DNA of 64,000 bases from a virus. The stretch is taken from positions 47,352 to 111,351 of the IMG/VR virus record IMGVR_UViG_3300029249_000109; one strand, written 5' to 3'. A program made the position numbers and the translations under genes. Shown piece by piece: positions 12,939 through 62,822 of this stretch (its first letter is position 1; each line of letters begins with the position of its first letter). The notes under the pieces are model-generated. The model was not told where the DNA came from. It worked only from the letters and a program-made list of their open reading frames with translations, and searched no databases.

Positions 12939-14285
12939 TCAATCGAGTAGATCGGCCAGACGGGCAGTCTCAGAGCGTTCCGTAATAGGTAAGTAAACCG
13001 TTCCAAAGCGTTCATTTCCTGTCAGCTTATCAATCAACTTTTGAATGCCGTTATTTCGTTCGAAAGCTACATCATCAATCTGTCTCAAATCACCGTTAAT
13101 CCACAGTGTGCTGCCATCACCAACTCGACCAATCAATAACTGAATATGCTGCTTAGTGAGGTTTTCCGCTTCACTGCAATAAATTATAGATCGATTGAAG
13201 CTGCGTCCACGAATAAAGCCGAGCGGCTGAATCTCTACCCATCCATCAGTGATAGCTCGCTCCAATGCAACCTCGCCGCCAAGACAGTCGGCTAGAATTG
13301 CTGCGAATGGATATACCTTTTCAAGCATAGAGCCGGGAAGGAAGCCAATTTCTTTTGTGTCTTTGACCTCGATATTGTTGCGAACCCAAACGATCTTGTC
13401 GTATTTGCCCTTTTCGATCAGATCAACAGCGTGATTAACCATCAGGAAGTCTTTGCCGCTACCATACACACCAAGAAGCAGTTTGATTGTGATGTCGTCG
13501 TTCTGAAGTAGGTCAAAGGCGAGCTTTTGCTGATTGTTGAGCGGCTTGATCTTACCTGAGTAGGCGGTGTTCAGGTTCTTGTATTTAATAGGTACATAGC
13601 GTGAACCATCCCATCGAAGCCCCGCTGTGTTACCGTCTGCGTCTGCATTTGGAATCAATACATAACCGTTTGTGGGTGTATCAAACAAGTTCTTTTGCTC
13701 GATATCTTTGGAGTAGGCCATTGCCAGTGCTTCCTCACCACCCTGATCCATGGGCACCTCTGTCCAGCCAGTGTAGTCATTGTGGGCTCCGCCGCGATCA
13801 AGAGATAGTTCACAGGGCAGTTTCATAATCCGTTGTGCAAGATTGAAGCAGCTTAGGTCACTGGTAACAAAACAGAAGGAATCAACATCAGCGGTCGTTT
13901 TGGCTACGAGTTCATCTGCGGCCGACTTTTCAAACACTCCCGCCCTGGTCTGAATCTTCTCTGCGTCTTCTTTCTTTTCAATCAGCTCATTCAGATACCA
14001 TCGGGCAGCAGCCATAATCGTTCCGTCGTTGTTGTCTTTAGCTGGGATATCATTCAGGATCGAGAGCAGCTGTGGGTAGTCAATAGATACTACTGTATAC
14101 GCTGTGGGATGTTCGGCGAGTAGGCGAGTGACTGTGCGGGCCTTAGCTTTGGTAGCTTCATCCTTCTTTCCACTGGTCTTGATATCTTCCAGCTCATAGA
14201 GAGTGATGTCAGCAATTAGGAACTGCTGTGCAAGTAATGTGTCGGGCGGGAGATCTAGCAGGGCAGAAGTATCGTAAAATTTCAT
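12939..14285 (-). CDS. phoH: PhoH-like ATPase with an N-terminal PIN domain (YlaK-type)
   Basis: N-terminal PIN-like MKFYDTSALLDLP. PhoH motifs GVYGSGKDFL (P-loop), GFLPG, IRGRSFNRSIIYCSEAENLT and GDLRQID. Confidence 0.8.
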   Translation of the reverse strand: MKFYDTSALLDLPPDTLLAQQFLIADITLYELEDIKTSGKKDEATKAKARTVTRLLAEHPTAYTVVSIDYPQLLSILNDIPAKDNNDGTIMAAARWYLNELIEKKEDAEKIQTRAGVFEKSAADELVAKTTADVDSFCFVTSDLSCFNLAQRIMKLPCELSLDRGGAHNDYTGWTEVPMDQGGEEALAMAYSKDIEQKNLFDTPTNGYVLIPNADADGNTAGLRWDGSRYVPIKYKNLNTAYSGKIKPLNNQQKLAFDLLQNDDITIKLLLGVYGSGKDFLMVNHAVDLIEKGKYDKIVWVRNNIEVKDTKEIGFLPGSMLEKVYPFAAILADCLGGEVALERAITDGWVEIQPLGFIRGRSFNRSIIYCSEAENLTKQHIQLLIGRVGDGSTLWINGDLRQIDDVAFERNNGIQKLIDKLTGNERFGTVYLPITERSETARLADLLD

Positions 14286-14394
14286 ACCGATAAATCAACA
14301 TCCTTTCAGAGAATTAAGATTGTTTGATTATTTACTACTGCTGTTTACAAGGCGATAAAAATGATCGTAGCAAGATGGGCGATTCTTGATACGC

Positions 14395-14410
14395 AAACAG
14401 AAGAAGTAAA
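14395..14410 (+). promoter_or_regulatory. Copy of the recurring 16-bp motif AAACAGAAGAAGTAAA in the divergent intergenic hub
   Basis: Exact 16-mer. A partial inverted arm ctgttta lies at 14341-14347. Confidence 0.4.
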
Positions 14411-15980
14411 CTATCATACACCTATTATACAACAAAATCACATGATTATCAAGTGAAATTGCATATATTTTCCGGAGCGATACGTTGTTTTTTGGCGCTA
14501 CTGTGCAGTAGTGTGGCATATAGTGTCGTTTTTGTATGAAATGAGCGGCTTCTGATGCATTTTTAACGATTTTAGGACGAAATTTGACGTTTTTGATCAA
14601 AAATTGTGCGGTATTTAAACAATCAGGAAGGAGAAATTAAGCTTCAGCGGTGCGTCTACAGAGCGAAATTACGATAATAGGCGGATTTTAGTGCGTTGTG
14701 ATAGGAGGATATTTTTAACGATAGTGCGTTGTTTACCGGATTGGGCTTCGGGACGTTTTTGAGCTGCGCAGCAGTGCACGGTGGTATTTGGAAATACTAT
14801 GGCGCAAGGTGTGCTATGTGATCTTGATGGGCAGAAATAGGGGCTGCAGAGCAGTGGTTGACATGGCTGTGGGGATCAAAATAGGGGAGTGAGGTACTGC
14901 ATAGATGGATGTAGAAATGTTGTAAATGCGGTAGTGAACTCGGGAGGTTTGGGACGGGATGGGGAGATAGAACAACTAAGCCCTTCGGGCTTCGCGCGGG
15001 CTGACCCCGGATTTTCAACCTGCCCCCCCTCTTGCCCTGTCTACCATCCATTTTTTCTAGGATTCATGCGGATTTTCGGCTAATATGACCTTTTGTTAAA
15101 AGGTGGGATTAGGTAGTCCCTGAATACGAAATTTATACCTATTTATATATAGGCGACTTCCCATTCTGTTTTTGCGGACAGTGGTTTTTGCTGTTTGTGC
15201 ACTTGTTGCAAAAATAAATGAGTAGGCTATACTGTAGACACTCCAAGGGGAGCGGGAAACACCGGAACGGCACCCGCCACCCGGGGAGTAGTCGCACCTT
15301 GAAAATTGCAAAGTTTGGATTTCTCCATGTGGGCGGTTTATACCGTGCCGGGTTTCCGGTCAAGTGGTTATCCCTTGCCATTCCAAAACATGGGTTTCCC
15401 ATCTGAGCAATTAGTGCGCCCAAACCCCGATGGCCAAACATTACCGGCATAATTCCCAAGAACGTGGGAGAAGTGCGGGGGGCGGAGTACCTTGATAACT
15501 GAACAAAAGGCAGAACCTAAGATAACACCACGGGGACTGTTATGCGCAAGCATAGATTTGTAGAAAACGCCAAGGCCAGAGCTGGCGATAATAGATACAT
15601 TTCCAAAGATAGCAACGGTTGTTTGATGGCGTGGAACCGCCTAGAGGAGAAAAAAGCTCTTGTATCACCCCTACTATAAGCTAGAATAGCGGGCAAGGGT
15701 GCAAGAAAAAGAACACCATTAGTTCCAGATGGGTAAAGTGCGCCAAGACTAACTAACGCACGATGGACAGCACACGGGCTGTATAAGTCCGTGCCATAAT
15801 GGAACACGGGCAACAGTGCAATGGCCTAGAGAAAAGCACATACCCAAAAGCATATAAGCTACAAGTGTAGCTTCACATAAAAGAGACGGTCATCGGTATG
15901 CACTCTCCAAAAGCGTACCGTACCAGAGCGCTAAACAATCCGGTTTGGTGCAAGTTTTTACAAGATGAGAGGTAACTATT

Positions 15981-22164: not shown

Positions 22165-22781
22165 AGTGATTTCCAGAAATCTCCTATATACATAACAAAG
22201 TCGCGGATGATATCATAACAAAAAGTATTCGCAGAGGGAACTCCGGTAGTACAACAGCTGTGCTGCCGGGGTTTAATGCGGCTGCGGGTTCTGCAGAGCC
22301 TGTACTGGTCCCAAGCCCAGAACGCGAGCAGCGTAAACAGAAGGGCGCTCCACCGCTCTAGTGAAATTTGATTTGATTTTGAAGCAAAGGCCACGCGGAT
22401 AAATCAATGATAAAAGTAAACTAGAGGGTGTTACTTGAAGTGAGCGAAACTAAACGAAAGGAGGGTTTATAGCTTGAATTGTAAAATCAGTTACCGCTCG
22501 CTAGGAGTGGTCTTTGGTGCAGGAGTCGCGTCTTGCTCCACTGAGCGAAATTTCATGGGATGGCGATACAAGCTGTTCTGACACGCAGCGGCTGAAATTT
22601 TTCAAATTAAATAGAATTAACGCTGTAAGTGATCGTTGCATCCGAATAAGCGCACACATACATACGAGATCGACGGGAGTCGCAACTAGGCATAATCGAC
22701 CCGTAAGTCTCTTATAGAGCTGGGTGGTTCCCGAACGGACAAGTTGACCGTATGTTAAGGAGTTTTCAGAAACCGGGCGAC

Positions 22782-27657: not shown

Positions 27658-27736
27658 TTTACTTCTTCTGTTAATAATCACGATTGACATCTGCTCGTGG
27701 ATGTGCTAATCTAGTCGTGCAAACAGAAGAAGTAAA
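27658..27736 (+). promoter_or_regulatory. Promoter (TTGACA-17-TAATCT) bracketed by a perfect 15-bp inverted repeat of the recurring motif (TTTACTTCTTCTGTT ... AACAGAAGAAGTAAA)
   Basis: Arms at 27658-27672 and 27721-27736; -35 at 27684-27689; -10 at 27707-27712. Lies upstream of the antirepressor-like gene. Confidence 0.5.
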
Positions 27737-29850: not shown

Positions 29851-29942
29851 GGGACGTTAGCTTAGTTGGTTAAAGCTCCTGGCTCATAACCGGGTAATGA
29901 GGATAACACCTCACGGGGGTTCGAATCCCTCACGTCCCACCA
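29851..29942 (+). tRNA. tRNA with anticodon CAU (Met/Ile2-type) carrying an unusually long variable arm (about 20 nt)
   Basis: Manual fold: acceptor gggacgt/acgtccc, A73, encoded CCA, D-arm tagcttagttggttaaagc (elongator Met-like), anticodon stem cctgg/ccggg with loop ctCATaa, variable hairpin tgagg-ataaca-cctca, T-loop ttcgaat. Confidence 0.55.
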
Positions 29943-30249: not shown

Positions 30250-30333
30250 TATGCCGGTATCGCTCAGCGGCTAGAGCACTGGGTTTATACCCCTTGGTCC
30301 AGATAAGACAGAGGCGCGGGTTCGAGTCCTGCT
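30243..30333 (+). tRNA. tRNA-like gene with canonical acceptor, D and T arms but an aberrant anticodon region (possible UAU anticodon on a weak stem, or a 14-nt loop) and a 13-20-nt extra region
   Basis: Acceptor gccggta/taccggc, A73, encoded CCA, D-stem gctc/gagc, T-arm gcggg-ttcgagt-cctgc. Between them, ctgggtttataccccttggtccagataagacagaggc does not form a standard 5-bp stem with a 7-nt loop. Confidence 0.35.
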
Positions 30334-30375
30334 ACCGGCACCATTTTAGTAACATTTTGAAAGAAGGTATGAATC

Positions 30376-34849: not shown

Positions 34850-34866
34850 TTTTATTTTTTGCCACT

Positions 34867-34882
34867 AAACAGAAGAAGTAAA
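34867..34882 (+). promoter_or_regulatory. Copy of the recurring 16-bp motif AAACAGAAGAAGTAAA
   Basis: Exact 16-mer, 15 nt upstream of the ATG at 34897. Confidence 0.4.
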
Positions 34883-34896
34883 ATGGAGTGATGCTT

Positions 34897-35022
34897 ATGA
34901 ATATCAAGTATGTCGACGGCCACTATGAAATTGTATCGGCGGATAGTGGTCAGTTTATTCAGTCGGCCGATACATGGGACGAAGCTCTGGATGATATGAA
35001 GGAGCTACTGCAAACCGCATAA
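34897..35022 (+). CDS. Small hypothetical protein (41 aa)
   Basis: Translates to MNIKYVDGHYEIVSADSGQFIQSADTWDEALDDMKELLQTA; weak RBS. Confidence 0.35.
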   Translation: MNIKYVDGHYEIVSADSGQFIQSADTWDEALDDMKELLQTA

Positions 35023-39379: not shown

Positions 39380-40615
39380 ATGTACGTTACTTATTGGAAT
39401 CCACCGAGAACAAGGCAGATTACGTTTGACGAAATCCTTAGCGGAGTCGTTGATGTGAATCAGTTGAAATATGCTGGCGATGAAACTTCTACTCGAACCG
39501 TACAGCGCGAGGGTTTGAATGATCGTTTAGTGGCTATCACAAATGTCACTAGTATGATCACACAGCTGACGGAATTTAATCAGAAATATGCTCGTCTTGA
39601 AGCAGTACATGACCTGTCGACGTATTACTACCACTTTGAAATCCCTAAGAAAACTGGTGGATTTCGACCGATTGATGCCCCGACAAACGAACTGAGTGAT
39701 GCGTTGGTTGAGTTGCGGACGCTATTAAAAAGTTTCATGATTGCTGATTATCACACGGCAGCACACGCATATATCAACGGGCGCGGCACTCTGAGTGCGA
39801 TTAAAAAGCATCAGGCGGGGCACAGATATACAGTAAAAGATCGCGAAACTGGAAAAGAAAAGATCGTCACTTATGAAAATAACTGGGCTGTCAAGTTTGA
39901 CTTTCATGGATTCTTTCCGAGTTCCACTCCTGAGTTTATCTACGGTATGTTCAGCAAGATTTATCCGTTTTCTCTTATTATGAAAGATCGAAATGGATAC
40001 AACCAGCTGACTAAAGCGATGCGCTTGTGCTTCTTGAACGGCGGTCTTCCGCAGGGAACGCCAATCAGTCCGTGGATCACGAACGTTATGATGATCCCGT
40101 TTGATTATATGTTAAACAAGAAGCTTTCTTACAAATATACCATGAAAGACGGCATTTCTCGCACTTTTACATATACCAGATATGCAGACGATATCACTAT
40201 CAGTTGTTATCTGAGTTTTGACCCGATGGAAATGCAGGATATTATCAAAGAGACGTTGGATGCAATCAATGCTCCGTTTACTTTGAATGAAGAAAAAACG
40301 CATTATGGCAATCGGCATTCGAGCGAAAACTGGATGCTCGGTCTGATGTGGAACGCCAATAACGATATCACAGTTGGATGGCGTAATTTTAAGGACTTCA
40401 AGAAGATGGCATCTAATTACATCGTCTGCAAGAAAGAAGGAAAAACGTGGGATCTTGAAGACCTGCAGCAGTTTAATGGCAAGTTGAATTACTACCGTAT
40501 GGTTGAAAAAGAATCAGTTGATGCGGTAATCTCTCGATACAATGAAAAATATCGTGTTGACATGATGGCAATGCTCAAAGCTGACTTAAAACCAAAAGAA
40601 GGAGTTGTTTTCTAA
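39380..40615 (+). CDS. Reverse transcriptase (retron/Abi/UG-like bacterial RT, RT domain only)
   Basis: KKTGGFRPIDAP (RT motifs 1/2), TAAHAYINGRGTLSAIKKH (matches the Ec86 retron DAAHGFVPGRSIITNAKKH region), LNGGLPQGTPISPWITNVMM (motif B, QGxxxSP) and YTRYADDITIS (YADD catalytic motif). Confidence 0.85.
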   Translation: MYVTYWNPPRTRQITFDEILSGVVDVNQLKYAGDETSTRTVQREGLNDRLVAITNVTSMITQLTEFNQKYARLEAVHDLSTYYYHFEIPKKTGGFRPIDAPTNELSDALVELRTLLKSFMIADYHTAAHAYINGRGTLSAIKKHQAGHRYTVKDRETGKEKIVTYENNWAVKFDFHGFFPSSTPEFIYGMFSKIYPFSLIMKDRNGYNQLTKAMRLCFLNGGLPQGTPISPWITNVMMIPFDYMLNKKLSYKYTMKDGISRTFTYTRYADDITISCYLSFDPMEMQDIIKETLDAINAPFTLNEEKTHYGNRHSSENWMLGLMWNANNDITVGWRNFKDFKKMASNYIVCKKEGKTWDLEDLQQFNGKLNYYRMVEKESVDAVISRYNEKYRVDMMAMLKADLKPKEGVVF

Positions 40616-40953
40616 TGATTGAAATGATGTGTAGAGATGGCGGCACTCCAGTTGAATTGCTCGATCAGGCGGCAAATGTCGTAGAGGAATCCATTGGGTG
40701 TCCAGTTGACCTGTTGGATATCGACGACCACAGAGCAATGGTCTATTGGGGGCCGTCTGATGTTGCAAGCGCAATCAAGGAACTTGGCATCAAAGAAATC
40801 GATGCAGAGGATATGAGCTTATGTGCAGATCTTTTGTGTGATTTTGAAGTGAAAATTCATCAGGCAATGCTTGAGGCCGGACACGACGCTTTACAGACTT
40901 GTTTGGAGTGTCTTGTTGATGAACTGCGAGAGCAGGACAAAGAATCAAAGTAA
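40615..40953 (+). CDS. Highly acidic small protein translationally coupled to the RT (TAATG overlap)
   Basis: 112 aa rich in Asp/Glu; could be an RT accessory or effector. Confidence 0.5.
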   Translation: MIEMMCRDGGTPVELLDQAANVVEESIGCPVDLLDIDDHRAMVYWGPSDVASAIKELGIKEIDAEDMSLCADLLCDFEVKIHQAMLEAGHDALQTCLECLVDELREQDKESK

Positions 40954-40999
40954 TTATATATTGTAATCTCTTTTGAATATCGGGCGTTCTACGTCGCGA

Positions 41000-41019
41000 G
41001 CTGCCGGTTGACCGACAGT
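41000..41019 (+). ncRNA. Conserved hairpin element (motif family 1, copy C) downstream of the RT operon
   Basis: GCUGCCGGUUGACCGACAGU, followed by the hairpin ggctgcc-aaccaca-ggcagcc. Confidence 0.35.
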
Positions 41020-41297
41020 TATGAAGAATACCACAGCACGCTCATACGGGCTCTAGGGCTGCCAACCACAGGCAGCCTCGCCCTCCTGAGCTATGGATTA
41101 AATTAGTTCGCAAGAGGAGTCTCCGTTCTGCAGCCTAGATCCCAGCAGAGCTGGAGATCGCGGCTGCCATCACTGCGACTCATTGGCCATCAGAACATTT
41201 ACTCGATAATGCTTCCGGGATCGAAGATCCCTCCAAATTATCTCGCAAATGTTCTTCCAGCCAAACTATTACTCACAATTTAGAAAAGAGATTGATT

Positions 41298-41561
41298 ATG
41301 GATTACAAATATAAAGTTGGCGATAAAGTAAGAATTCGGAAAGACTTGACAGCCGGCGCAGAATATCCAATGCAAAGCGGAGAAAAGTATGGTTACGATC
41401 CGGGAGTCAATGAGGCTATGGAAACGTATCGTGGACAGATTATGACAATCGACCATCAAATCTGCGGTGTTTATATGCTCTGCGAGGACAGCCACTATTG
41501 GAGTTGGACTGACACGATGTTTGAATCACCAAAATCGCTTACATGTAAAAGTCTTTTGTAA
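41298..41561 (+). CDS. Small protein of the YKYKVGDKVRIR paralog family ending in -TCKSLL (tag set)
   Basis: MDYKYKVGDKVRIRKDL...KSLTCKSLL. Confidence 0.6.
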   Translation: MDYKYKVGDKVRIRKDLTAGAEYPMQSGEKYGYDPGVNEAMETYRGQIMTIDHQICGVYMLCEDSHYWSWTDTMFESPKSLTCKSLL

Positions 41562-41575
41562 AGGAGTGAATTTAA

Positions 41576-42391
41576 ATGGCAGAAACCGCCAAAAAGACGG
41601 TGCAAAAAACCATTCTTTTCCCCGTTGAAGATCAGCTCGCAAAACTCATTGTTACAGAGGACGATATTGAACGAATTATTCAGCAGGCCGTTAAAAGTGC
41701 TAATGAAACGAAAAAAGCACGGAAACCTCGTCGGACGGACAGTCTTTATCTCAAGGATGGGCGCAGAAAGCCAACTCCGGCAGACCCTATCAAGTCAAAG
41801 GAAGATTTTAAGAAGATTGTTGATTACCTTGGGTCTAACGGACGTGAAGAAATCGCGTTAAGAAACAAAACGATGTTTATTCTCGGTTGTTCAATTGGCG
41901 TTCGATGTGGCGATTTGTTGAAACTTAAAACGGCTGATGTTTATTATGAGAACGCTCATGTAAAAGATCATGTTGAGCTGATCGAGCAGAAGACCGGCAA
42001 GCGAAACGTGTGTAAAATTTCTCACATGGCAAAAGAATCTTTAAGAGAATATTATCAGGCAATTGGTTTTCGAATTGACCGCGACACACTTCTTTTTCAG
42101 AGTAAGAAAGGTGGACAGCTTAACGTTAGATCGGTGAGCAACCTTTTGAAGAAAGCTGGTAAGGCGTGTGGTTTGGACATTGAGTTGTCGACTCATAGTA
42201 TGCGTAAAACTTATGCTATGGCCGCGTTACAGAGTGCCGAGGGTACAGTTGATGGCGCGAATATCTTGAATATTCTCCAAACAAAATTTAATCACAGCGA
42301 CCAGCGTATTACGATGAGATATATCAAAATGGATCAGGAAAAACTTGATGAAATCGCTGAGAATGTTTCCAACTGGTTTGAAGGAGAATGA
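41576..42391 (+). CDS. Tyrosine recombinase/integrase (XerD-like)
   Basis: GVRCGDLL (box I Arg), THSMRKTYA (HxxR) and ITMRYIKMD (catalytic Tyr region). RBS aaaggagtgaatttaa. Confidence 0.7.
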   Translation: MAETAKKTVQKTILFPVEDQLAKLIVTEDDIERIIQQAVKSANETKKARKPRRTDSLYLKDGRRKPTPADPIKSKEDFKKIVDYLGSNGREEIALRNKTMFILGCSIGVRCGDLLKLKTADVYYENAHVKDHVELIEQKTGKRNVCKISHMAKESLREYYQAIGFRIDRDTLLFQSKKGGQLNVRSVSNLLKKAGKACGLDIELSTHSMRKTYAMAALQSAEGTVDGANILNILQTKFNHSDQRITMRYIKMDQEKLDEIAENVSNWFEGE

Positions 42392-42394
42392 ACT

Positions 42395-42667
42395 ATGAAC
42401 TATAAGTTTAAACCCGGAGATAAAGTAACGGTTAGAAAAGATTTATCAAATCGTGAAGCATACAAGATGTTGTCAGGAGAAACTCCAAATGATGCTATTC
42501 TTGCTACTTCTTCTATGGAAAATTTTCGAGGAAAACAAGTCACAATCGAGGGCTATGATTGTTGTTGTAGTTCAATGTGTTACAGGGTAAAAGAAAGCTC
42601 CAGATATTGGGCAGATGAAATGTTTGAAGAATCTAAAAAACCGTTTACATGTAAAAGTCTATTATGA
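42395..42667 (+). CDS. Paralog ending in -TCKSLL (tag set)
   Basis: MNYKFKPGDKVTVRKDL...KKPFTCKSLL. Confidence 0.6.
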   Translation: MNYKFKPGDKVTVRKDLSNREAYKMLSGETPNDAILATSSMENFRGKQVTIEGYDCCCSSMCYRVKESSRYWADEMFEESKKPFTCKSLL

Positions 42668-42683
42668 AAAGAGGTAAGAGAAC

Positions 42684-42968
42684 GTGTCGAAAAGCAAGTA
42701 CAAATATAAGAATGGAGAAGTGGTTCGCGTCAGGGAAGATCTTCAATCTGGAGTAGTTTATTACATGAAATCTGGTCCAGAACCGAATGCCAATGGCATT
42801 GAGACGTCATGGAGCGGACGCGGACAAGTAGGTTATCGTGGACAAATTGTACATATTTCTCATAAAGCAAACGGTCGATACAAAATTCTTGAGGATGGAA
42901 AAACATATTATTATACGGATGAAATGTTTGATCGTCCTAAGAATCTGATTTGCAAAAGTTTGCTGTGA
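42684..42968 (+). CDS. Paralog ending in -ICKSLL (tag set), GTG start
   Basis: MSKSKYKYKNGEVVRVREDL...PKNLICKSLL; RBS aaagaggtaagag. Confidence 0.6.
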   Translation: MSKSKYKYKNGEVVRVREDLQSGVVYYMKSGPEPNANGIETSWSGRGQVGYRGQIVHISHKANGRYKILEDGKTYYYTDEMFDRPKNLICKSLL

Positions 42969-42977
42969 GGATTTGAA

Positions 42978-43232
42978 ATGGATTACAAATATAAAGTTGG
43001 ACAAAAAGTAAGAATTCGTCGTGACCTTGGTTGTCAAGAAAGTTACAAAATGGTAAGTGGACCAAAACCAGGCTATGATCCTGGGTTTTCATTTAGTATG
43101 TGTAAATACGCTGGCAAAATTACAACTATCTTAAATTGTAACATTACGTACGAAGTAGAAGGATGTAACTGGACGTGGTCCGACGAGATGCTTGAACCGG
43201 TAAACCAGTTTTGTTGTAAATCATTATTATAA
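42978..43232 (+). CDS. Paralog ending in -CCKSLL (tag set)
   Basis: MDYKYKVGQKVRIRRDL...VNQFCCKSLL. Confidence 0.6.
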   Translation: MDYKYKVGQKVRIRRDLGCQESYKMVSGPKPGYDPGFSFSMCKYAGKITTILNCNITYEVEGCNWTWSDEMLEPVNQFCCKSLL

Positions 43233-48150: not shown

Positions 48151-48303
48151 ATGAAATTTAATAAAGAAGAAATCTATAACGCACTTGATATTCTGACTTG
48201 TCAAATCCAAGAGTCTGACGAGCTCGGATGGTGTTGTAAGCAGGAACTGAAAAATGTCCTTGACGATTACTTCCGACTAATTGAAAAGGAGAATATGAAA
48301 TGA
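48151..48303 (+). CDS. Small hypothetical protein (50 aa) between the Prs-like and NAMPT-like genes
   Basis: RBS gggatgaggattgat; ATGA overlap with the downstream gene. Confidence 0.4.
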   Translation: MKFNKEEIYNALDILTCQIQESDELGWCCKQELKNVLDDYFRLIEKENMK

Positions 48304-49778
48304 TCAATATTAACCCGATGCTGCTGTGTGACTTTTACAAGACAACGCACAGTAAGCAGTTTCCGGCCGGCACTACCAAGCTGGTCAGTTACTTCACGCC
48401 TCGTATGAGTCGGTTGGATGGCGTGGATGAAGTTGTTGTGTTTGGCGTTCAGGCATTTTGCAAGGATTATCTGGTGCAGTATTTCAACGACAACTTTTTC
48501 GACGAACCAAAAGAAATGGTCGTTCCTCAGTATAAGCGATATCTGGATGCGACCATTGGTAAGGATGCTTACGATCTGAGCAAGATTGCAGCGCTACATG
48601 ATCTGGGATATCTTCCTGTTGAAATCAAGGCACTGCCAGAAGGCACTCGTTGCCCCATCCATGTGCCGTTCCTTGAGATGAGCAATACGCACCCTGATTT
48701 CGCATGGGTTCCGCAGTTCCTTGAATCCTTTATGAGCTCTGAGCTGTGGCATCCGATGATTTCTGCAACGGTCGGAACTCTGTATCGCGATATCGTGGAC
48801 AAGTATTACGATGAAACAGTGGAGGATGGCGTGCCACATGCTCGTGCTCTGGGTGATTTCAGTTTCCGTGGTCAGGAGTGTATGCAGTCGGCAGTTAAGT
48901 CAAGCGCCGGTTGGTGCTTGAGCTTTCTGAATACGGCTACTGTCCCTGCGATTCCGTATCTGGAAGAAATGTATCGTTGCAATTGTGAAGAAGAGCCCGT
49001 TGCATTCGGCGCTGTTAGTACCGAGCATAGTGTGATGTGTTCCAACTTCGCAGTCGATGGCGATGAGATCACTTTCATCCGCCGGGCGCTGACTGAGCTG
49101 TATCCCAATATGAATTTCAGCATGGTGTCTGACTCCTACGACTATTGGAATCTGGTTGATAACATTCTACCGCAGCTCAAGGATGAGATCATGGCACACA
49201 ATGGCACACTGCTGATTCGTGGCGATTCTGGCGACCCGGTCGAAATTGTTACGCAGACGGTTTATCATCTGTGGGATATCTTCGGCGGCACGGTCAACAG
49301 CAAGGGTTATAAGGTGCTCGACCCTCATGTAAAGGCTCTGTATGGCGACTCTATCACTGTGCAACGCTGTGAAAAGATTTATGCCGAGCTCAAAGCACAC
49401 GGTTTTGCCTGCAACAATGTCAGTCTTGGCGTTGGTTCTTTCTCCATGCAGTGCATCGAGCAGAATGGTCAGTTGAAGCCGTTCACTCGCGATACTTTTG
49501 GCATGGCAGTCAAGGCAACTTATGGCGTGGTCAATGGCAAGGAGATTCAGATCTTCAAGGACCCCAAGACCGACACCGATCACTTTAAGAAGAGTCTGAA
49601 GGGTATGTGTTATGTCACTAAGGATGATTCTGGAAAGCTGGTTTGTACTGATGGCCTGATGGATCACGCTGCTCATTCTGACGGAAACATGCTGCAGCCT
49701 GTATTCCGCAATGGCGCGATGATTAAAGAATACAGTTTGAAGGAAGTCCGCGACCGACTGTGGGGAGGGAAGTTCTGA
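48300..49778 (+). CDS. nadV: Nicotinamide phosphoribosyltransferase (NAMPT/NadV)-like enzyme; candidate nicotinamide-ADPR transferase
   Basis: 492 aa of NadV-like length. The N-terminus MININPMLLCDFYKTTHSKQFP resembles phage NadV proteins. Confidence 0.65.
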   Translation: MININPMLLCDFYKTTHSKQFPAGTTKLVSYFTPRMSRLDGVDEVVVFGVQAFCKDYLVQYFNDNFFDEPKEMVVPQYKRYLDATIGKDAYDLSKIAALHDLGYLPVEIKALPEGTRCPIHVPFLEMSNTHPDFAWVPQFLESFMSSELWHPMISATVGTLYRDIVDKYYDETVEDGVPHARALGDFSFRGQECMQSAVKSSAGWCLSFLNTATVPAIPYLEEMYRCNCEEEPVAFGAVSTEHSVMCSNFAVDGDEITFIRRALTELYPNMNFSMVSDSYDYWNLVDNILPQLKDEIMAHNGTLLIRGDSGDPVEIVTQTVYHLWDIFGGTVNSKGYKVLDPHVKALYGDSITVQRCEKIYAELKAHGFACNNVSLGVGSFSMQCIEQNGQLKPFTRDTFGMAVKATYGVVNGKEIQIFKDPKTDTDHFKKSLKGMCYVTKDDSGKLVCTDGLMDHAAHSDGNMLQPVFRNGAMIKEYSLKEVRDRLWGGKF

Positions 49779-50251
49779 TGGCTGGTGTAATCAAAGAAGG
49801 CAACGTATTTGATTCTGACGCAGATATTATTTGCCATCAGGTGAATTGTCAGGGTGTAATGGGATCAGGCGTTGCTAAAGAAGTTCGCGAACGGTTTCCG
49901 AATGTGTATGAGGAATATCACACTTACTGCGAAACCAACAAGGACTATCCGGGACGAATGCTTGGTATCGCTCAGATGGTGCCAGTCGATGAAAAAGGTT
50001 CACGATGGATCATCAATTGTTTTGGTCAGAACAGTTATGGATATGACGGAAAGCAGTACACGTCTGTTGGCGCACTGATGGAGGCATTTCAAGAAGTTGC
50101 AAAATTCGCTAAGATGACTGGAACTAAAGTGGCTATGCCATATGGAATCGGCTGTGTTCGTGGTGGTGCTGATTGGGAGACCGTCAAGAAGATCATTGAT
50201 GTTACATTTCAAGACGTAGATGTTGAGCTATGGAGATTGAAGGAGAAGTAA
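49778..50251 (+). CDS. Macro domain protein (ADP-ribose / O-acetyl-ADP-ribose binding or hydrolase)
   Basis: ADIICHQVNCQGVMGSGVAKEV fits the macro-domain core NAAN...GGGV. Start coupled to the NAMPT stop (tgATGg). Confidence 0.65.
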   Translation: MAGVIKEGNVFDSDADIICHQVNCQGVMGSGVAKEVRERFPNVYEEYHTYCETNKDYPGRMLGIAQMVPVDEKGSRWIINCFGQNSYGYDGKQYTSVGALMEAFQEVAKFAKMTGTKVAMPYGIGCVRGGADWETVKKIIDVTFQDVDVELWRLKEK

Positions 50252-50252
50252 T

Positions 50253-51011
50253 ATGCGCAATTATGAATTTGATGCATCAAAGACAAAAGATGAAATCATT
50301 ACGTGGATTCGGAATTATTTCCGCAAGAATGGTCCTGACTGCAATGCTGTGGTTGGTATTTCTGGCGGCAAGGATTCCAGTATTGTGGCAGCTTTGTGCT
50401 GTGAAGCGCTTGGTAATGGTCGAGTGATCGGCGTTCTGATGCCGCAGGGGGTGCAGGACGACATTGATGTAGCGCGGGATCTGGTCAAGCATCTGGGTAT
50501 CAAGTCGTTCGAGGTCAATATTGCGGAAACTGTGAATGCGTTACTGGCTAGGGGTCGAATTGCTGGTCTGTGTGATTCCAAGCAGGCTCGTGTAAATCTG
50601 CCGGCACGAATCCGTATGGCAACCCTGTTCATGGTATCTCAGAGTATGAATGGGCGGGTAGCGAACACCTCTAATTTTTCGGAGGACTATGTTGGATTTG
50701 CCACTCTTTTTGGAGACGGAGCTGGTCAGTTTAGCCCTCTTGGCAAGCTAACTGTTACCGAAGTAAAGGCTATCGGTCGTGAACTGGGTCTCCCTGAAAA
50801 GTTTATTGAGAAAGCACCTGCTGATGGTCTGACCGGTAAGACTGATGAAGACAACTTCGGCTTTACCTATGATTTCCTTGACAAGTATATCCGTACTGGA
50901 GATTTCGGGGGCGATACTGCAACCGCAGCCAAGATTGATCGGATGCATGATGCAAACACGTTCAAGCTATTGCCGATGTCGGTATATAATTCAAACCCGT
51001 TTGACTGGTGA
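50253..51011 (+). CDS. nadE: NH3-dependent NAD+ synthetase (NadE)
   Basis: VVGISGGKDSSIVAAL is the PP-loop SGGxDS signature. Confidence 0.75.
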   Translation: MRNYEFDASKTKDEIITWIRNYFRKNGPDCNAVVGISGGKDSSIVAALCCEALGNGRVIGVLMPQGVQDDIDVARDLVKHLGIKSFEVNIAETVNALLARGRIAGLCDSKQARVNLPARIRMATLFMVSQSMNGRVANTSNFSEDYVGFATLFGDGAGQFSPLGKLTVTEVKAIGRELGLPEKFIEKAPADGLTGKTDEDNFGFTYDFLDKYIRTGDFGGDTATAAKIDRMHDANTFKLLPMSVYNSNPFDW

Positions 51012-51034
51012 GTCTAATTAAGGAGGATTTAGCA

Positions 51035-51604
51035 ATGGAAAAGACAAAAGTCGATATCTTGGTTGTTGTTGATATGCAGAACGATTTCGTAACCGGCGCT
51101 CTTGGTACTCCTGAAGCTCAAGCTATTGTGCCAAAGGTTGTGAAGAAGATCAAAGGCTGGAGCGGTAAGGTTCTGTATACCAGAGACACTCACCATGAAA
51201 ACTATCTCGAAACTCAGGAAGGTAAACATCTCCCTGTGAAGCACTGTTTAGAGGAGACGTGGGGGTGGCAGTTGATCGATGAGGTTGACGCGACAATCAC
51301 TGACGAGATGTGGGAATCTGACAATCCCATCTACGACAAAGAAGTGTTCGGCTCTTATTATATGATGCAGGACTTACGAGAAACTCTTCTTTGGTATTCT
51401 GACGTGGAAATTAACTCAATCACACTGGTCGGACTTTGCACGGACATCTGTGTTATCTCCAATGCAATTATGCTGAAGAATGTGCTCCATGAGGTTCCTA
51501 TCATTGTGGATGCAAGCTGCTGTGCTGGTGTAACTCCTGAGTCTCATAAGAACGCACTGGCTGCCATGAAGATGTGTCAGATTGAAATTGTAAACGAGGA
51601 ATAA
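51035..51604 (+). CDS. Isochorismatase-family cysteine hydrolase, likely nicotinamidase (PncA-like)
   Basis: VVVDMQNDF and LVGLCTDICV (catalytic Cys). RBS aaggaggatttagca. Confidence 0.65.
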   Translation: MEKTKVDILVVVDMQNDFVTGALGTPEAQAIVPKVVKKIKGWSGKVLYTRDTHHENYLETQEGKHLPVKHCLEETWGWQLIDEVDATITDEMWESDNPIYDKEVFGSYYMMQDLRETLLWYSDVEINSITLVGLCTDICVISNAIMLKNVLHEVPIIVDASCCAGVTPESHKNALAAMKMCQIEIVNEE

Positions 51605-59382: not shown

Positions 59383-59709
59383 ATGGTAAAAACTTTCACT
59401 GCGGATGAGTTTTTTGAATTCATCAAAAAATTTCGCTACATAGTCATAGGAGGATCATCCGATAGAGAATCCGGCGTATATGTGGAAACAAGAACCGATA
59501 ATTTAACGCTAGTTGAACGTTTAAGGAGCAAAAGCATTCAAGCTGATTTGTTTTCAGGAGGAACAAATCAAATCCAGGCTCGATTTGCGATAACAGGGAA
59601 TACTTTCCATTGTGATTTCGAAAATGAGCTTCTGGATCAAAATCAAAATTCTTTATTGGTCCATACAGATTTGAGCGGTGTTAAGATGCCAATCATATTA
59701 TATAATTGA
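59383..59709 (+). CDS. Hypothetical protein
   Basis: Start after accggaggatgaa. Confidence 0.45.
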   Translation: MVKTFTADEFFEFIKKFRYIVIGGSSDRESGVYVETRTDNLTLVERLRSKSIQADLFSGGTNQIQARFAITGNTFHCDFENELLDQNQNSLLVHTDLSGVKMPIILYN

Positions 59710-59712
59710 ATC

Positions 59713-59766
59713 TAAACAGAAGAAATACAAAATACTATTGACTTCTACTGTTTAAGGTGGTATAAT
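59713..59766 (+). promoter_or_regulatory. Consensus promoter (TTGACT-17-TATAAT) overlapped by an inverted pair of the recurring motif (TAAACAGAAGAAA ... ACTTCTACTGTTTA)
   Basis: -35 at 59738-59743, -10 at 59761-59766. Palindromic arms at 59713-59725 and 59741-59754. Confidence 0.6.
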
Positions 59767-59807
59767 GGGACCATAGAAAACAAGCCATAAACAAGGAGGT
59801 CATAAAT

Positions 59808-60203
59808 ATGTTCGTGGCTGGAAAAAGTGTCCCGAAGATTGGCGAAATTCGATTTGGATACGTCGTAGCGAATGACGATCGAGCCGCAACACACAAGTAC
59901 GTCGGAGTGCATCCGTATCTTGTGGTATCAAACAACATCTATAACAAATGTGCTGGACAGTGCGAAGTGATTCCATTCACGACAAAAAGAATTGGAAAGC
60001 ATAATCCGGTTCATGTTGATTATAAGGTTGGAGAGGTTAGCGGTTTGGTAAAAGACTCGACTCTTGTGATTGAGGGGAGAGACACCTTATTAAATTCACA
60101 ACTCAGCGAACCAATTGGAGAATTTACCGAGGACAATTGGAATAGAGCTGTTGAAGCGATGATGGTCCAGTGTCCGCTTCTAAAAAAGAAAAATGCCAGT
60201 TGA
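59808..60203 (+). CDS. MazF/PemK-like toxin-fold protein (type II TA endoribonuclease family), apparently solitary
   Basis: PKIGEIRFGYVVANDDRAATHKYVGVHPYLVVSNNIYNK...IPFTTKR resembles PemK/MazF. No obvious antitoxin ORF upstream. Confidence 0.5.
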   Translation: MFVAGKSVPKIGEIRFGYVVANDDRAATHKYVGVHPYLVVSNNIYNKCAGQCEVIPFTTKRIGKHNPVHVDYKVGEVSGLVKDSTLVIEGRDTLLNSQLSEPIGEFTEDNWNRAVEAMMVQCPLLKKKNAS

Positions 60204-60236
60204 GCTGCTCGAATTAACATAATTTGCACAATTCCA

Positions 60237-60270
60237 TTGCAAAATTCTTCTACATAGTGTAAAATACAAT
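60237..60270 (+). promoter_or_regulatory. Promoter candidate TTGCAA-17-TAAAAT
   Basis: Upstream of the AT-rich recombinase gene. Confidence 0.45.
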
Positions 60271-60304
60271 TGAGTGATTGCGACACCGTGTAGGAGCGTA
60301 AATT

Positions 60305-61375
60305 ATGGATATTAGTCAGCAGCTTTACAACGCAGAACAGAAAAACCTTTTTATAGAAGATTACATTGTCACAACAGGAAAATCAAAGCAATGTAATGAA
60401 ATCGAGAAGAGAAAGAGGGCTGTTAAGTTTCTGCGTGGGGTATCAAGTTTCGAATACCAGCACAACAAAGACTTTTGTACGTTTAAGATTGGCAGCGAAG
60501 AAATGAGATCCGTTTATGTTGGATGGCTTAACAATTGTTCGGAATCTACGGTTCGAATTGCCATATCAATTCTTCGTCAATATGTAAAATGGTGCTATAA
60601 AAAAGAGATCATTGATTATGCAACATATGCTAGTCATGCCTTGATTTCAAAGAATTCGGAACTATATATAAAGAGCGATACGGAAATGTCAATTCCAACA
60701 AAAATCACTTCTCCAGTGTTTTTAGCACAAAATATATCAGCGATGGAGAACGAATCAAGTGTTGGAGATGATTTTGTTTTTAAAACCGAAAATGGTTACT
60801 TTAACTATTTAAACGTCTTATTTGAAGACGATAAATATACAATGCCGGCTGCCGTTATGACTTTGTTCTACTACGGATTTTCAATTGAAGAAATACGTAG
60901 TCTGTACAGAAGAGATGTCGATTCTTCTGAAAGACGCATTCGAAACGTTATAATCGAAAACGAAACGGCAATGAAGCTGATTGAACGTGCAAAAAATTTG
61001 GATTCTTATGTCATTATTAAAGAAGATGGATATAAGAGAACAGAATATTTCATGGACTCAACACGTCTGATTCGCAATACTAGCAGAGGATGTGGAATGG
61101 TTTCCGAAGACCAAAAGATACCGAAAGAGTATTGCCACAAAATGAGGCAGTATCAGCTGATGGCATCAAAAAAACTTCCTCGAAATTCGAAATATAAAAA
61201 CGTCTTCATAAAGATGCCAACCGTGCAAAAACTTAGAGATTTTTATAAAATCTATAGAGACGAGCAGGAATTAGGCATCGAAGAGGTTAGACGTCGTTTC
61301 AACAATGGAACGTATAATGTGCAATTTGACTTTTATGCATATAAGATAATGGCATCTAAAGCGCGTGATATATAA
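60305..61375 (+). CDS. Tyrosine recombinase/integrase (second one; AT-rich gene)
   Basis: LFYYGFSIEEIRSLYRRDVD (box I Arg region), CHKMRQYQL (HxxR) and C-terminal FDFYAYKIM (Tyr). Confidence 0.55.
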   Translation: MDISQQLYNAEQKNLFIEDYIVTTGKSKQCNEIEKRKRAVKFLRGVSSFEYQHNKDFCTFKIGSEEMRSVYVGWLNNCSESTVRIAISILRQYVKWCYKKEIIDYATYASHALISKNSELYIKSDTEMSIPTKITSPVFLAQNISAMENESSVGDDFVFKTENGYFNYLNVLFEDDKYTMPAAVMTLFYYGFSIEEIRSLYRRDVDSSERRIRNVIIENETAMKLIERAKNLDSYVIIKEDGYKRTEYFMDSTRLIRNTSRGCGMVSEDQKIPKEYCHKMRQYQLMASKKLPRNSKYKNVFIKMPTVQKLRDFYKIYRDEQELGIEEVRRRFNNGTYNVQFDFYAYKIMASKARDI

Positions 61376-61381
61376 TACATC

Positions 61382-61404
61382 CGGGGCGAAAGCCCCGATG
61401 TTTA
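61382..61404 (+). terminator. Hairpin terminator with a GAAA tetraloop
   Basis: cggggc-gaaa-gccccg followed by atgtttat. Confidence 0.45.
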
Positions 61405-61413
61405 TCGAATTGT

Positions 61414-61429
61414 AAACAGTAGAAGTAAA
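61414..61429 (+). promoter_or_regulatory. Copy of the recurring motif AAACAGTAGAAGTAAA
   Basis: 16 nt upstream of the SLT gene's ATG. Confidence 0.4.
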
Positions 61430-61445
61430 CGAGAAAGGAGGAAAA

Positions 61446-62051
61446 ATGAAAAAGTTAATTTGTTCGATATTTTTAATATGTATCGGAATGAGTTTCTCGG
61501 TAGTAGCCAAAGCAGAAGATCCAATCGCCACTTATCAAGAGTGGCCATTATATTTAAAAACGTATACAGAAGAAGTAAGCAATGAATATGGAGTCGATTA
61601 CAGTTTGGTACTCGCAGTCATATACAACGAAAGCCGATTTAAAAGCGGACTGACTCATATGAACTCAAACGGAACAACCGATTATGGGCTGATGCAAGTC
61701 AATGAGGTTAATTTCAAATATTTGAACAAAACGCTCGGGATTGCATCAATGAATCAACTTTTGGATGATCGAGTGGGGATTAAATGCGGGGTACATCTTC
61801 TTGCTTATCATAAAAACGCTACAGGAAACGATTCCGCAGCCCTTTTACGGTATCAAGTAGGAGAGGGTACTTATAAAAAGTATATAAAACGTGGTAAATA
61901 TACAAATGATACGCATACGAGGGTGTGGCAATACAGAGATATTTATCATGAATATCTGAATCAAACGATTGCTGAATCAAAACTAGATGGATTCGTGAAG
62001 AGAGATCCGATTGAATCTATTTTAAATATGTGGGCAGAGATGCTCACTTGA
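61446..62051 (+). CDS. Secreted lytic transglycosylase (SLT domain)
   Basis: Signal peptide MKKLICSIFLICIGMSFSVVAKA. SLT motif ESRFKSG...DYGLMQVN. RBS gagaaaggaggaaaa. Confidence 0.7.
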   Translation: MKKLICSIFLICIGMSFSVVAKAEDPIATYQEWPLYLKTYTEEVSNEYGVDYSLVLAVIYNESRFKSGLTHMNSNGTTDYGLMQVNEVNFKYLNKTLGIASMNQLLDDRVGIKCGVHLLAYHKNATGNDSAALLRYQVGEGTYKKYIKRGKYTNDTHTRVWQYRDIYHEYLNQTIAESKLDGFVKRDPIESILNMWAEMLT

Positions 62052-62053
62052 TA

Positions 62054-62128
62054 AGCTGGTGTAGCTCAGAGGCAGAGCACGGTACTTGTAATGCCGGGGT
62101 CGAGATTCCGAAATTCTCCACCAGCTCC
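62054..62128 (+). tRNA. tRNA-Thr (anticodon UGU)-like with an atypical T-arm (T-loop tccgaaa, mismatch in the T-stem); could also be a phage attP core
   Basis: Acceptor gctggtg/caccagc, D-arm tagctcagaggcagagc, stem cggta/tgccg with loop ctTGTaa, encoded CCA. Confidence 0.5.
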
Positions 62129-62180
62129 ATTGAACGGCGGTAGCCGCATTAAAGATTACATATTTTAAAGGAGTAAGATT

Positions 62181-62822
62181 ATGACTACTGAAACTATGAC
62201 AATTCATCGCGGTCTGGCAGAGTTGAAGGTTATTGAAGATCGCATCAACAAGCTTCTTCGTGAAGCTAAGTTTTGTGCACCAGCTAAAAAGAGTATGAAG
62301 AAGTTGGATGGTGTGGATATCGATGAGTTTAAAACAAATGCTCAGTCCGTTTTCGATAAGATCACTGCACTGATTTCAAAGCAGGCAGCACTTAAGCGAG
62401 CGATTTCCGAATCCAACGCAAAGACTTATGTTACTGTGGCCGGGGTCAATTTCACCGTTGCAATGGCAATTTGGATGAATCAGCATGGCATTGATTTCCA
62501 GAGTGCACTGCTTAATGTAATCGATCGCCAGTACTCTAATGCCACTGCCGTAATTGAAAATGCAAACGCTCGTCTGAGTGATCGTGCTGACGCTTTTGTG
62601 AGCGCTACGAATTCCGCTTCAGATAAGAACAACATGGATGCTGAGACTCTGAAGGAAATCCGCCAGGATTACATGGATCGCGAGACTATGGCCCTGGTTG
62701 ATGGTATCGATGTTAAGAAGGTAAAGAGCGAACTGGCTGATAAGATCGATAAGTTCAAGGCCGAAGTCGATGCGGCACTGTCTGCTTCTAATGCTGTGAC
62801 TGAGATCACGATTGAATACTAA
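62181..62822 (+). CDS. Hypothetical protein with GC3-rich codon usage
   Basis: RBS aaaggagtaagatt; 213 aa, helical/coiled-coil character. Confidence 0.55.
   Translation: MTTETMTIHRGLAELKVIEDRINKLLREAKFCAPAKKSMKKLDGVDIDEFKTNAQSVFDKITALISKQAALKRAISESNAKTYVTVAGVNFTVAMAIWMNQHGIDFQSALLNVIDRQYSNATAVIENANARLSDRADAFVSATNSASDKNNMDAETLKEIRQDYMDRETMALVDGIDVKKVKSELADKIDKFKAEVDAALSASNAVTEITIEY

Follow-up and report, generated by a model that had tools for sequence, protein, structure and literature searches.

We analysed a window of 64,000 nucleotides (nt) from IMG/VR virus record IMGVR_UViG_3300029249_000109 (positions 47,352-111,351 of the record), in which the segment at 59713-62128 encodes a MazF/PemK-like protein, an integrase-fold protein of 356 amino acids (aa), an SLT-type lytic transglycosylase and a tRNA-Thr. 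A sequence-only reading had presented this segment as an AT-rich island with a toxin, a second tyrosine recombinase and a possible attP core. Our results indicate that it is quite probably the conserved regulatory core of a phage family, in which a catalytically dead relative of the repressors MrpR and SroF represses transcription through a 17-bp motif. The features of this core are as follows.

59383-59709, plus strand: open reading frame (ORF) of 108 aa just upstream of the module, with no match to Pfam or any other family
59713-59729, minus strand: putative operator copy O1, TGTATTTCTTCTGTTTA, two mismatches to the motif consensus, upstream of the -35 element of P1
59738-59754, plus strand: putative operator copy O2, TTGACTTCTACTGTTTA, two mismatches to the consensus, overlapping the -35 element of P1
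59738-59766, plus strand: predicted promoter P1, TTGACT-17-TGgTATAAT, with an extended -10 TG
59808-60203, plus strand: MazF/PemK-like protein, 131 aa (PF02452, E = 6.4e-9, 36.4 bits against a cut-off of 23.1; phrog_1936, "MazF-like growth inhibitor")
60237-60265, plus strand: predicted promoter P2, TTGCAA-17-TAAAAT, before the repressor-like gene, with no copy of the 17-bp motif
60247-60296, plus strand: predicted RNA hairpin; 5' arm (60247-60260) in the P2 spacer, containing UACAU; 3' arm (60283-60296) containing the Shine-Dalgarno sequence AGGAG of the repressor-like gene
60305-61375, plus strand: MrpR/SroF-like integrase-fold protein, 356 aa, catalytically dead, the putative repressor reading the 17-bp motif
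61382-61397, plus strand: terminator-like GC hairpin 3' of the repressor-like gene
61413-61429, minus strand: putative operator copy O3, TTTACTTCTACTGTTTA, 3' of the terminator and 5' of the ribosome-binding site (RBS) of the SLT gene, 17 nt upstream of its start codon

Recombinase fold without catalytic residues and a dispersed motif

The only Pfam match of the 356-aa protein was the N-terminal core-binding domain of MrpR (PF22822, MrpR_N_CB; E = 9.6e-8, 33 bits against a cut-off of 27 bits), and no match to the Phage_integrase catalytic family was obtained in Pfam. Among 32 aligned members of the family, PF22822 was detected in 30 and PF00589 in none. When 1.84 billion representative proteins were searched exhaustively with HMMER, only 35 relatives were recovered; three of them were short pieces of the protein itself, and the others were 23-39% identical to the query. 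A sequence search of the PDB gave no match, and a word-indexed search led to nothing beyond the cluster to which the protein itself belongs; the homology was thus visible only through the full HMMER search, the family profile and the structure. The family profile had a single significant match in the PDB, YopR (MrpR) of SPbeta, with an overall E-value of 7e-9. The alignment extended over the N-terminal domain as well as the C-terminal region, and the profile covered the catalytic (CAT) region of YopR at positions 211-331. The AlphaFold2 model of the protein (predicted local distance difference test, pLDDT, 88.5; predicted TM-score, pTM, 0.80) displayed the two-domain fold of tyrosine recombinases, core-binding plus CAT, and was nearest to MrpR/SroF (MrpR, or YopR, of SPbeta and SroF of phi3T: PDB 8A0A, 9RD5, 9RGL). 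The top three Foldseek matches in the PDB were the SroF-Sar complex, SroF on DNA and MrpR (E-values from 6.8e-8 to 1.1e-6), followed by Cre and XerA.

The catalytic columns of the family were located by mapping the published positions (Table 3, PMC10516654) via the MrpR alignment of the family profile. The Arg I column holds Ser193 in the window protein and an arginine in 0/32 members (S, D, E, T, P, N, K or A being found there), the His II column holds Pro305 and a histidine in none of the 32, and the Arg II region reads Gln308/Lys309. The tyrosine column was mostly retained, with Tyr346 in the window protein and Y in 28, F in three and W in one of the members. The gene had been named a second tyrosine recombinase, a label that does not survive the match to the MrpR core-binding domain alone and the family-wide loss of Arg I and His II; to judge by these residues, its product is a recombinase-shaped protein without catalytic residues and not an active integrase. 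The same pattern of catalytic loss has been described for MrpR, SPbeta's master repressor, which shows no DNA recombination in vitro (PMC10516654). A true Phage_integrase gene lies elsewhere in the window (41576-42391; PF00589, E = 3.9e-17).

The motif is an asymmetric, non-palindromic 17-mer, TTTACTTCTTCTGTTTA (TTTACTTCTwCTGTTTA). Nine copies with up to three mismatches were found in the window, against 0.36 expected, and none of the shuffled sequences reached nine. In addition to O1, O2 and O3, the following copies were detected, so that the motif reaches promoters 25-45 kb from the mazF-like/repressor pair; in the 7 kb scanned past the window end, there were no extra copies.

14331-14347, plus strand, and 14394-14410, minus strand: inverted pair of putative operators just downstream of the leftward promoter TTGATA-17-TATAAT (14452..14424), which reads into a PhoH-like operon
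27658-27674, plus strand, and 27720-27736, minus strand: inverted pair flanking the promoter TTGACA-17-TGcTAATCT, which serves a 466-aa Bro-N/Ant-like gene (ATG at 27753)
34866-34882, minus strand: perfect copy, preceding a conserved 41-aa ORF (34898-35022) by 16 nt
61563-61579: ninth copy, inside the SLT ORF

The sequence-only reading had placed at the start of the segment a perfect promoter, overlapped by an inverted pair of a 16-bp motif in the manner of an autoregulated toxin-antitoxin operon. P1 is indeed near consensus (TTGACT-17-TATAAT with TG), matching it at 11 of 12 positions rather than perfectly, and it was the best of 19 promoter-like sites between 56 and 64 kb. The inverted pair is real as well, but the element is a dispersed, non-palindromic 17-mer, and each of the two copies deviates from it at two positions. 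Autoregulation of P1 via the repeated motif is very probable; the motif, however, follows the repressor-like protein and not a toxin-antitoxin pair, as the comparison with related phages demonstrated.

For this comparison, loci were gathered with the conserved MazF-like protein as the anchor, which yielded 78 IMG/VR loci on contigs of ~75-150 kb. The repressor-like gene was present in 76 loci, counted with the window and with MT835544, a fragment from human faeces that has the same gene order as the window; these fell into eight groups at ≥80% identity. Between groups, the repressor-like proteins were 20-47% identical and the MazF-like proteins 52-95%. Each of the eight groups had its own motif at the same syntenic positions. 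The cognate 12-mer core was found upstream of mazF (the O2 site) in 75/76 loci, downstream of the repressor gene (the O3 site) also in 75/76, upstream of the Ant-like gene in 50/50 loci of six groups, and upstream of PhoH in 41/41 loci of six groups. Non-cognate cores were essentially absent, and the cognate/non-cognate matrix was essentially diagonal at these four syntenic sites, which lie up to 45 kb apart; the co-variation of motif and protein spanned up to seven groups. Minus-oriented cognate copies corresponding to O1 were also seen upstream in groups cl0, cl2 and cl5, and the representative of each group had a near-consensus promoter at the P1 position and a GC-rich equivalent of the terminator-like hairpin.

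Several pairs of phages separated the repressor-like protein from its surroundings. Between cl0 and cl7, the MazF-like proteins were 95% and the Ant-like proteins 84-85% identical, whereas the repressor-like proteins shared 47% and the motifs were different. In MT835544 (cl4), the MazF-like protein was 70-72% identical to that of the window and the repressor-like protein just 32%; the window motif was absent from this fragment, and a different 18-mer, ATTGAAAAGTGACTTTGT, occupied the same two positions and also preceded a near-identical 41-aa ORF, so that the motif had been swapped at three sites. This 18-mer does not occur in the window. In cl2 phages whose PhoH was 95-97% identical to that of the window, cl2 operators were still located upstream of PhoH. 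The component that tracks the identity of the motif is therefore the repressor-like protein, and we regard the co-variation as strong indirect evidence that it reads the motif. A separate observation, from the comparison of the window's PhoH-like gene (12939-14285, minus strand) with loci L271-L297, concerned mosaicism: this gene was 90-97% identical to that of most cl2 phages, whereas with that of other cl3 phages it shared no more than 74-80%, and the operators upstream of it still matched the resident repressor group.

We regard it as very unlikely that the motif is read by another co-varying factor, such as the Bro-N/Ant-like protein, the product of the 108-aa ORF or a phage sigma factor, with the integrase-fold protein doing something else. 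Bro-N is a DNA-binding domain, and the divergence of the 108-aa ORF keeps pace with that of the repressor-like protein. However, the Ant-like protein remained 84-85% identical between two groups with different motifs. The 108-aa protein shows no signature of DNA binding and is less convincing in this role than a protein homologous to repressors with proven motif binding. Before genes on the same strand, the motif is found in either orientation, which argues against a directional promoter element.

The layout of the copies also recalls that of invertons, since segments with a promoter lie between inverted copies of the motif at 14.3 kb and 27.7 kb, as does the whole two-gene cassette. An active recombinase inverting the DNA between such copies, with phase-variable promoters or an invertible mazF cassette as the outcome, is nevertheless highly improbable. 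The catalytic residues are gone, the cassette lay in one orientation relative to the tRNA and the downstream genes in 76/76 loci, and the promoter-flanking pairs are ~45 bp apart, a distance that we judge to be too short for synapsis. The absence of recombination by MrpR in vitro argues in the same direction (PMC10516654).

The protein encoded at 60305-61375 would thus act as a DNA-binding repressor of the asymmetric 17-bp motif, the asymmetry of which fits monomer binding like that of SroF. Copies of the motif overlap or flank a few strong host-type promoters, namely P1, the leftward promoter of the PhoH operon and the promoter of the Bro-N/Ant-like gene, and binding would shut them. At P1, the motif would serve both for autoregulation and for control of the MazF-like gene. 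Other copies directly precede the RBS of downstream genes.

The MazF-like gene and a possible control circuit

The best solved relative of the MazF-like protein was EndoA of B. subtilis (E = 4e-4), and MazF structures were matched as well. In the alignment with EndoA, R25 corresponds to His35, and T48 is kept as Thr58; an RNase activity is plausible from these residues, and His35 could still act in catalysis. The earlier statement that this MazF/PemK-fold protein has no apparent antitoxin was borne out, as no gene for an antitoxin of the MazE/PemI, AbrB or ribbon-helix-helix (RHH) type adjoins it. The upstream neighbour is the 108-aa ORF without a Pfam match, separated from the mazF-like gene by P1, and the downstream neighbour is the integrase-fold protein. 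On the sense strands of the phage, no strand-specific avoidance of any 5-mer was detected, and TACAT was over-represented (z +3.25). The most under-represented 5-mer was CCWGG, on both strands (z -4.1 and -3.3); only the palindromic CCWGG was depleted, a sign that a restriction site or Dcm-type site of the host may be avoided.

An unconventional toxin-antitoxin pair, in which the integrase-fold protein would be both antitoxin and autorepressor in the toxin-first order of higBA, with a role in addiction or abortive infection, seems unlikely to us. In every group, and in a distant lineage too, the PemK-family gene and the repressor-like gene stand side by side in the same orientation; the motif lies at the promoter of the two, and no other antitoxin candidate is present. 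On the other hand, the motif also occurs at unrelated promoters 25-45 kb away, which is unlike a toxin-antitoxin system, and the repressor-like gene has a promoter of its own. MazF-like proteins that are 95% identical accompany partners that share 47%, a disparity that does not suggest a tight specific interface. Moreover, the equivalent of EndoA Arg25 is a histidine, and the toxicity is only putative.

The internal promoter P2 was nearly invariant in 8/8 groups, including its spacer (...ACATAGTG), which is unusual for promoter spacers. The hairpin that starts in this spacer was the minimum-free-energy fold (-20.2 kcal/mol, z -2.7), and the RNAalifold consensus gave the same helix over 12 variants, in which the changes were mostly transitions between G-U, A-U and G-C pairs, with two compensatory pairs. 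Such wobble pairs are tolerated only on the RNA of this strand, which points to a helix at the RNA level. Since the 5' arm lies upstream of the necessary start of P2 transcripts, the hairpin can form on the long P1 transcript alone. On that transcript, the helix would cover the Shine-Dalgarno sequence of the repressor gene, and the repressor would also be made from the operator-free P2. Transcripts from P1 would, on this model, yield mainly the MazF-like protein, and translation of the repressor would proceed from P2 transcripts. The UACAU that is invariant in the 5' arm is presumably the cleavage site of B. subtilis-type, or Firmicute, MazF/EndoA; we take it as a lead only.

The 108-aa ORF had homologues in 7/8 groups, with no significant match in cl1, and where matched, the identity between groups was 22-58%. 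It evolves as fast as the repressor-like protein, and the MazF-like protein encoded between the two stays conserved. A single-sequence AlphaFold2 model of it was poor (pLDDT 49.5). Its pace of divergence and its size, which equals that of the SroF antirepressor Sar, make it a possible specific partner of an antirepressor-like kind. The acidic 41-aa ORF behind the operator at 34866 was also considered as an antirepressor and was rejected, as it is ~90% conserved between groups whose repressors share 32%.

A fuller scheme would be a decision timer, which we put forward as speculation and, in all its parts, consider improbable. On infection, transcription from the strong P1 would yield the MazF-like protein while the repressor RBS stays hidden; cleavage at UACAU, or transcription from P2, would then unlock the repressor, which would shut P1 and the other early promoters. 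The 108-aa protein would serve as the antirepressor, and the phages would form at least eight heteroimmune types, possibly with an episomal lifestyle.

As to the function of the putative repressor, an immunity-type, lysogeny-like role, in which the circuit would maintain a dormant (lysogenic or episomal) state, is somewhat more likely than that of a lytic switch for early-gene shut-off. This is favoured by the diversification into at least eight repressor/operator specificities among similar phages; the operator-controlled Ant/Bro-like gene, the operator-free promoter of the repressor and the true integrase elsewhere in the genome are further points for it. In this respect, the suggestion of a lysis/lysogeny-type control module is plausible.

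A number of observations weigh against regarding the segment as a repressor-based regulatory core. DNA binding and repression are deduced from co-variation and homology, and the identity to MrpR and SroF is just 12-18%. The C-terminal Pfam model of MrpR (PF22823, MrpR_C_cat) was not matched by the 356-aa protein and was matched by only 1/32 family members. Global TM-scores against MrpR/SroF were low (0.38-0.51), which, in the model, is plausibly an effect of the inter-domain hinge. The O3 copy sits past the terminator, and the copy at 61563-61579, within the SLT ORF, may be a chance occurrence. LexA (Cheo) boxes were not enriched in the window (22 against 23.4 expected), and no cognate antirepressor was identified. 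With the MazF-like protein as the anchor, 185,579 species genomes yielded a single related stretch, on a 12-kb contig of a metagenome-assembled genome (MAG), and no match was found among the plasmids of PLSDB. The genome also carries many tRNAs and metabolic genes, which are common in large virulent phages. This gene content and the near lack of traces in bacterial genomes and plasmids also speak against the lysogeny-like role.

Neighbouring genes and phage context

The two features that complete the segment are the following.

61446-62051, plus strand: predicted secreted SLT-type lytic transglycosylase (PF01464, E = 2e-15), with the signal-like N-terminus MKKLICSIFLICIGMSFSVVAKA
62055-62129, plus strand: complete tRNA-Thr(UGU) (ARAGORN; Rfam RF00005, 50.6 bits against a threshold of 29 bits)

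The description of the first as a lytic transglycosylase with a signal peptide was confirmed by the SLT domain and the N-terminal signal-like sequence, and its translation also shows the motifs ...NES... and GLMQ. The second had been taken for a tRNA-Thr-like element with an odd T-loop. The T arm is indeed non-canonical, GAGAT-TCCGAAA-TTCTC, without the canonical G53-C61 pair and T54-Psi55-C56, but the gene is a complete tRNA-Thr(UGU) and one of 14 tRNA genes that ARAGORN detected within the window; close relatives have further ones just downstream. A tRNA-Thr(UGU) was present at this position in 7/8 groups as two alleles, one with the odd T arm and one with the canonical GGTTCAAGCC, and copies of the odd-T-arm allele included a compensatory change from G-C to A-T in the acceptor stem. 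By its structure and conservation, it is most probably a working phage tRNA gene and not an attP remnant. Some of the near-identical relatives of the window (L002, L003, L005 and L006, at ~11855-12019 of these loci) have ~164 additional bp with an ORF of 49-54 aa between the tRNA-Thr and the gene of a 213-aa protein; the window is without this extra stretch.

The GC content of the segment was 37.8%, compared with a window mean of 43.2%, which corresponds to the 5.8th percentile among equal-length windows. The source of the AT-richness was the repressor-like gene (35.5% GC) and the SLT gene (37.0%), the mazF-like gene being at 43.2%. The compositional difference noted in the sequence-only reading is therefore real yet modest and unremarkable.

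These data bear on the proposal of a mobile island, moron or lysogeny module, in which an active integrase would stand beside an attP core within the tRNA-Thr-like sequence. The integrase-fold gene does lie 0.7 kb from the tRNA-Thr, the flanks are somewhat less AT-rich than the segment, and the window contains the true Phage_integrase gene mentioned above. We nonetheless consider the proposal extremely improbable. Arg I and His II are missing throughout the family, no member of which contains PF00589. The tRNA is a full gene, not a 3' fragment, with a compensatory acceptor-stem change, and it belongs to a large phage set of 14 in the window and more downstream. The context of the module was the same in 76/76 related loci and syntenic in every relative examined, a finding of the kind that the sequence-only reading had named as refuting an island, and the neighbouring genes diverge along the same tree. 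A search of bacterial genomes such as that reading had recommended, made with the MazF-like protein as the anchor, gave only the 12-kb MAG contig. The case is a caution against naming such genes "integrase" and then inferring lysogeny or attP sites from the name.

As far as gene order tells, the conserved unit is not an island but the pair of MazF-like and repressor-like genes, of which the SLT gene and the tRNA are merely neighbours. The SLT gene is absent in cl1. In distant members of the family, the repressor-like proteins of which are 17-23% identical to the window protein, a PemK-family gene again immediately precedes the repressor-like gene. The downstream genes of this distant lineage differ, with LemA and Band_7 genes replacing SLT, and the pair is flanked on either side by a short inverted motif. 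Two genes upstream of the pair, the distant loci L268 (3155-3376) and L270 (2027-2248) carry, on the minus strand, a divergently oriented gene for a 73-aa protein of the HTH_3/HTH_19 (helix-turn-helix) type, which may be an additional regulator.

The gene content of the window (PhoH, an exonuclease, NAMPT and other phage-typical proteins) is that of a phage. An identical 356-aa protein was encoded on contigs of up to 149-156 kb, and DNA similarity to known phages was confined to matches at the tRNA level, besides the fragment MT835544. The phage belongs to an abundant, uncultured family of ~150 kb from human-gut-type metagenomes.

Further features of the window were recorded. A match to the type-P5 twister ribozyme is located at 22230-22320 on the plus strand (Rfam, 46.5 bits, gathering score 37.6). 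Two tRNA genes on the plus strand are unusually long, tRNA-Met at 29851-29942 (92 nt) and tRNA-Ile(UAU) at 30253-30343 (91 nt), and may carry insertions or introns. The region 39380-43018 encodes a reverse transcriptase (RVT_1, E = 2e-13) followed by the Phage_integrase gene at 41576-42391, which lies between paralogous ORFs of ~90 aa, with repeats at 41298/42395/42978 and at 41523/42629; the integrase gene seems to have inserted into a small family of tandem genes. A cluster for NAD+ salvage (NAMPT, a Macro domain protein, NAD synthase and an isochorismatase-family protein) occupies 48300-51604. The 213-aa protein encoded downstream of the tRNA-Thr (62181-62822, plus strand) matched phrog_1491, "tail fiber protein" (E = 1.4e-48), and its gene lies amid tRNA and regulatory genes, remote from any structural module seen there.

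Comparison with known systems

Integrase-fold repressors of the MrpR/SroF type were described in 2023-2025 and have been treated as peculiar to SPbeta-like arbitrium phages of Bacillus (PMC10516654; bioRxiv 10.1101/2025.11.27.690993); no report of them outside SPbeta-like Bacillus phages was found in the literature. For MrpR, the target is a repeated 15-bp element present at about 10 dispersed promoter regions (PMC10516654), and SroF binds a long asymmetric box as a monomer, with sites spread across the genome (bioRxiv 10.1101/2025.11.27.690993). The present protein resembles both in its two-domain tyrosine-recombinase fold, in the loss of the catalytic arginine and histidine with the tyrosine position mostly kept, in the long asymmetric motif, copies of which are scattered over promoter regions of a large phage genome, and in the existence of multiple specificity variants among related phages. 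The differences are also considerable. Besides the low identity and the unmatched C-terminal Pfam model, the gene lies in a two-gene operon with a MazF-like gene, whereas the sro (yopMNOPQR) operon comprises six genes, with the repressor gene as the last. The motif is 17-22 bp long here and overlaps the -35 element of the repressor's own promoter, no homologue of Sar was recognised, and LexA boxes are not enriched. The carrier is an uncultured phage of ~150 kb with many tRNAs and not an SPbeta-like Bacillus prophage. In this uncultured phage family, the locus can be interpreted as a variant form of the integrase-fold repressor system of MrpR and SroF, with its function proposed from sequence; it would represent a distant branch of this design in an abundant group of gut-type phages.

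As in the immunity regions of lambdoid phages, close relatives differ in the repressor and its operators while the flanking genes are similar. In lambdoid phages, however, clustered operators adjoin the gene of a dimeric helix-turn-helix repressor and can be exchanged with it as one cassette, whereas in the present phages the change of a putative integrase-fold repressor was accompanied by that of at least four operator sites, separated by up to 45 kb. The eight protein/operator pairs, sampled at four or more syntenic sites, constitute a dataset on how a monomeric recombinase fold reads 17-22 bp.

The module further resembles canonical type II mazEF and pemIK operons, as the promoter that serves a PemK-family gene is overlapped by a repeated operator. 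It differs from them in that no MazE/PemI gene is present, the operator lacks the form of an antitoxin-bound palindrome, and the general-acid arginine of EndoA is replaced by histidine.

A parallel of another kind is offered by phage phi3T, in which host MazF activity promotes lysogeny and is in turn governed by AimX, YosL and phi3T_93, proteins of the phage (PMC10769878). In both cases, an RNase of the MazF family is, or here would be, tied to repression of the MrpR/SroF type; unlike phi3T, the present phage itself encodes the MazF-like protein, without MazE, as the first gene of an operator-controlled operon. The link between MazF and the repressor system is drawn here from conserved adjacency, and the parallel is suggestive rather than evidence. 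Nevertheless, the constant pairing with a MazF-like gene echoes the role of host MazF in the lysis-lysogeny decision of phi3T, and it may be tested in a compact module of two genes.

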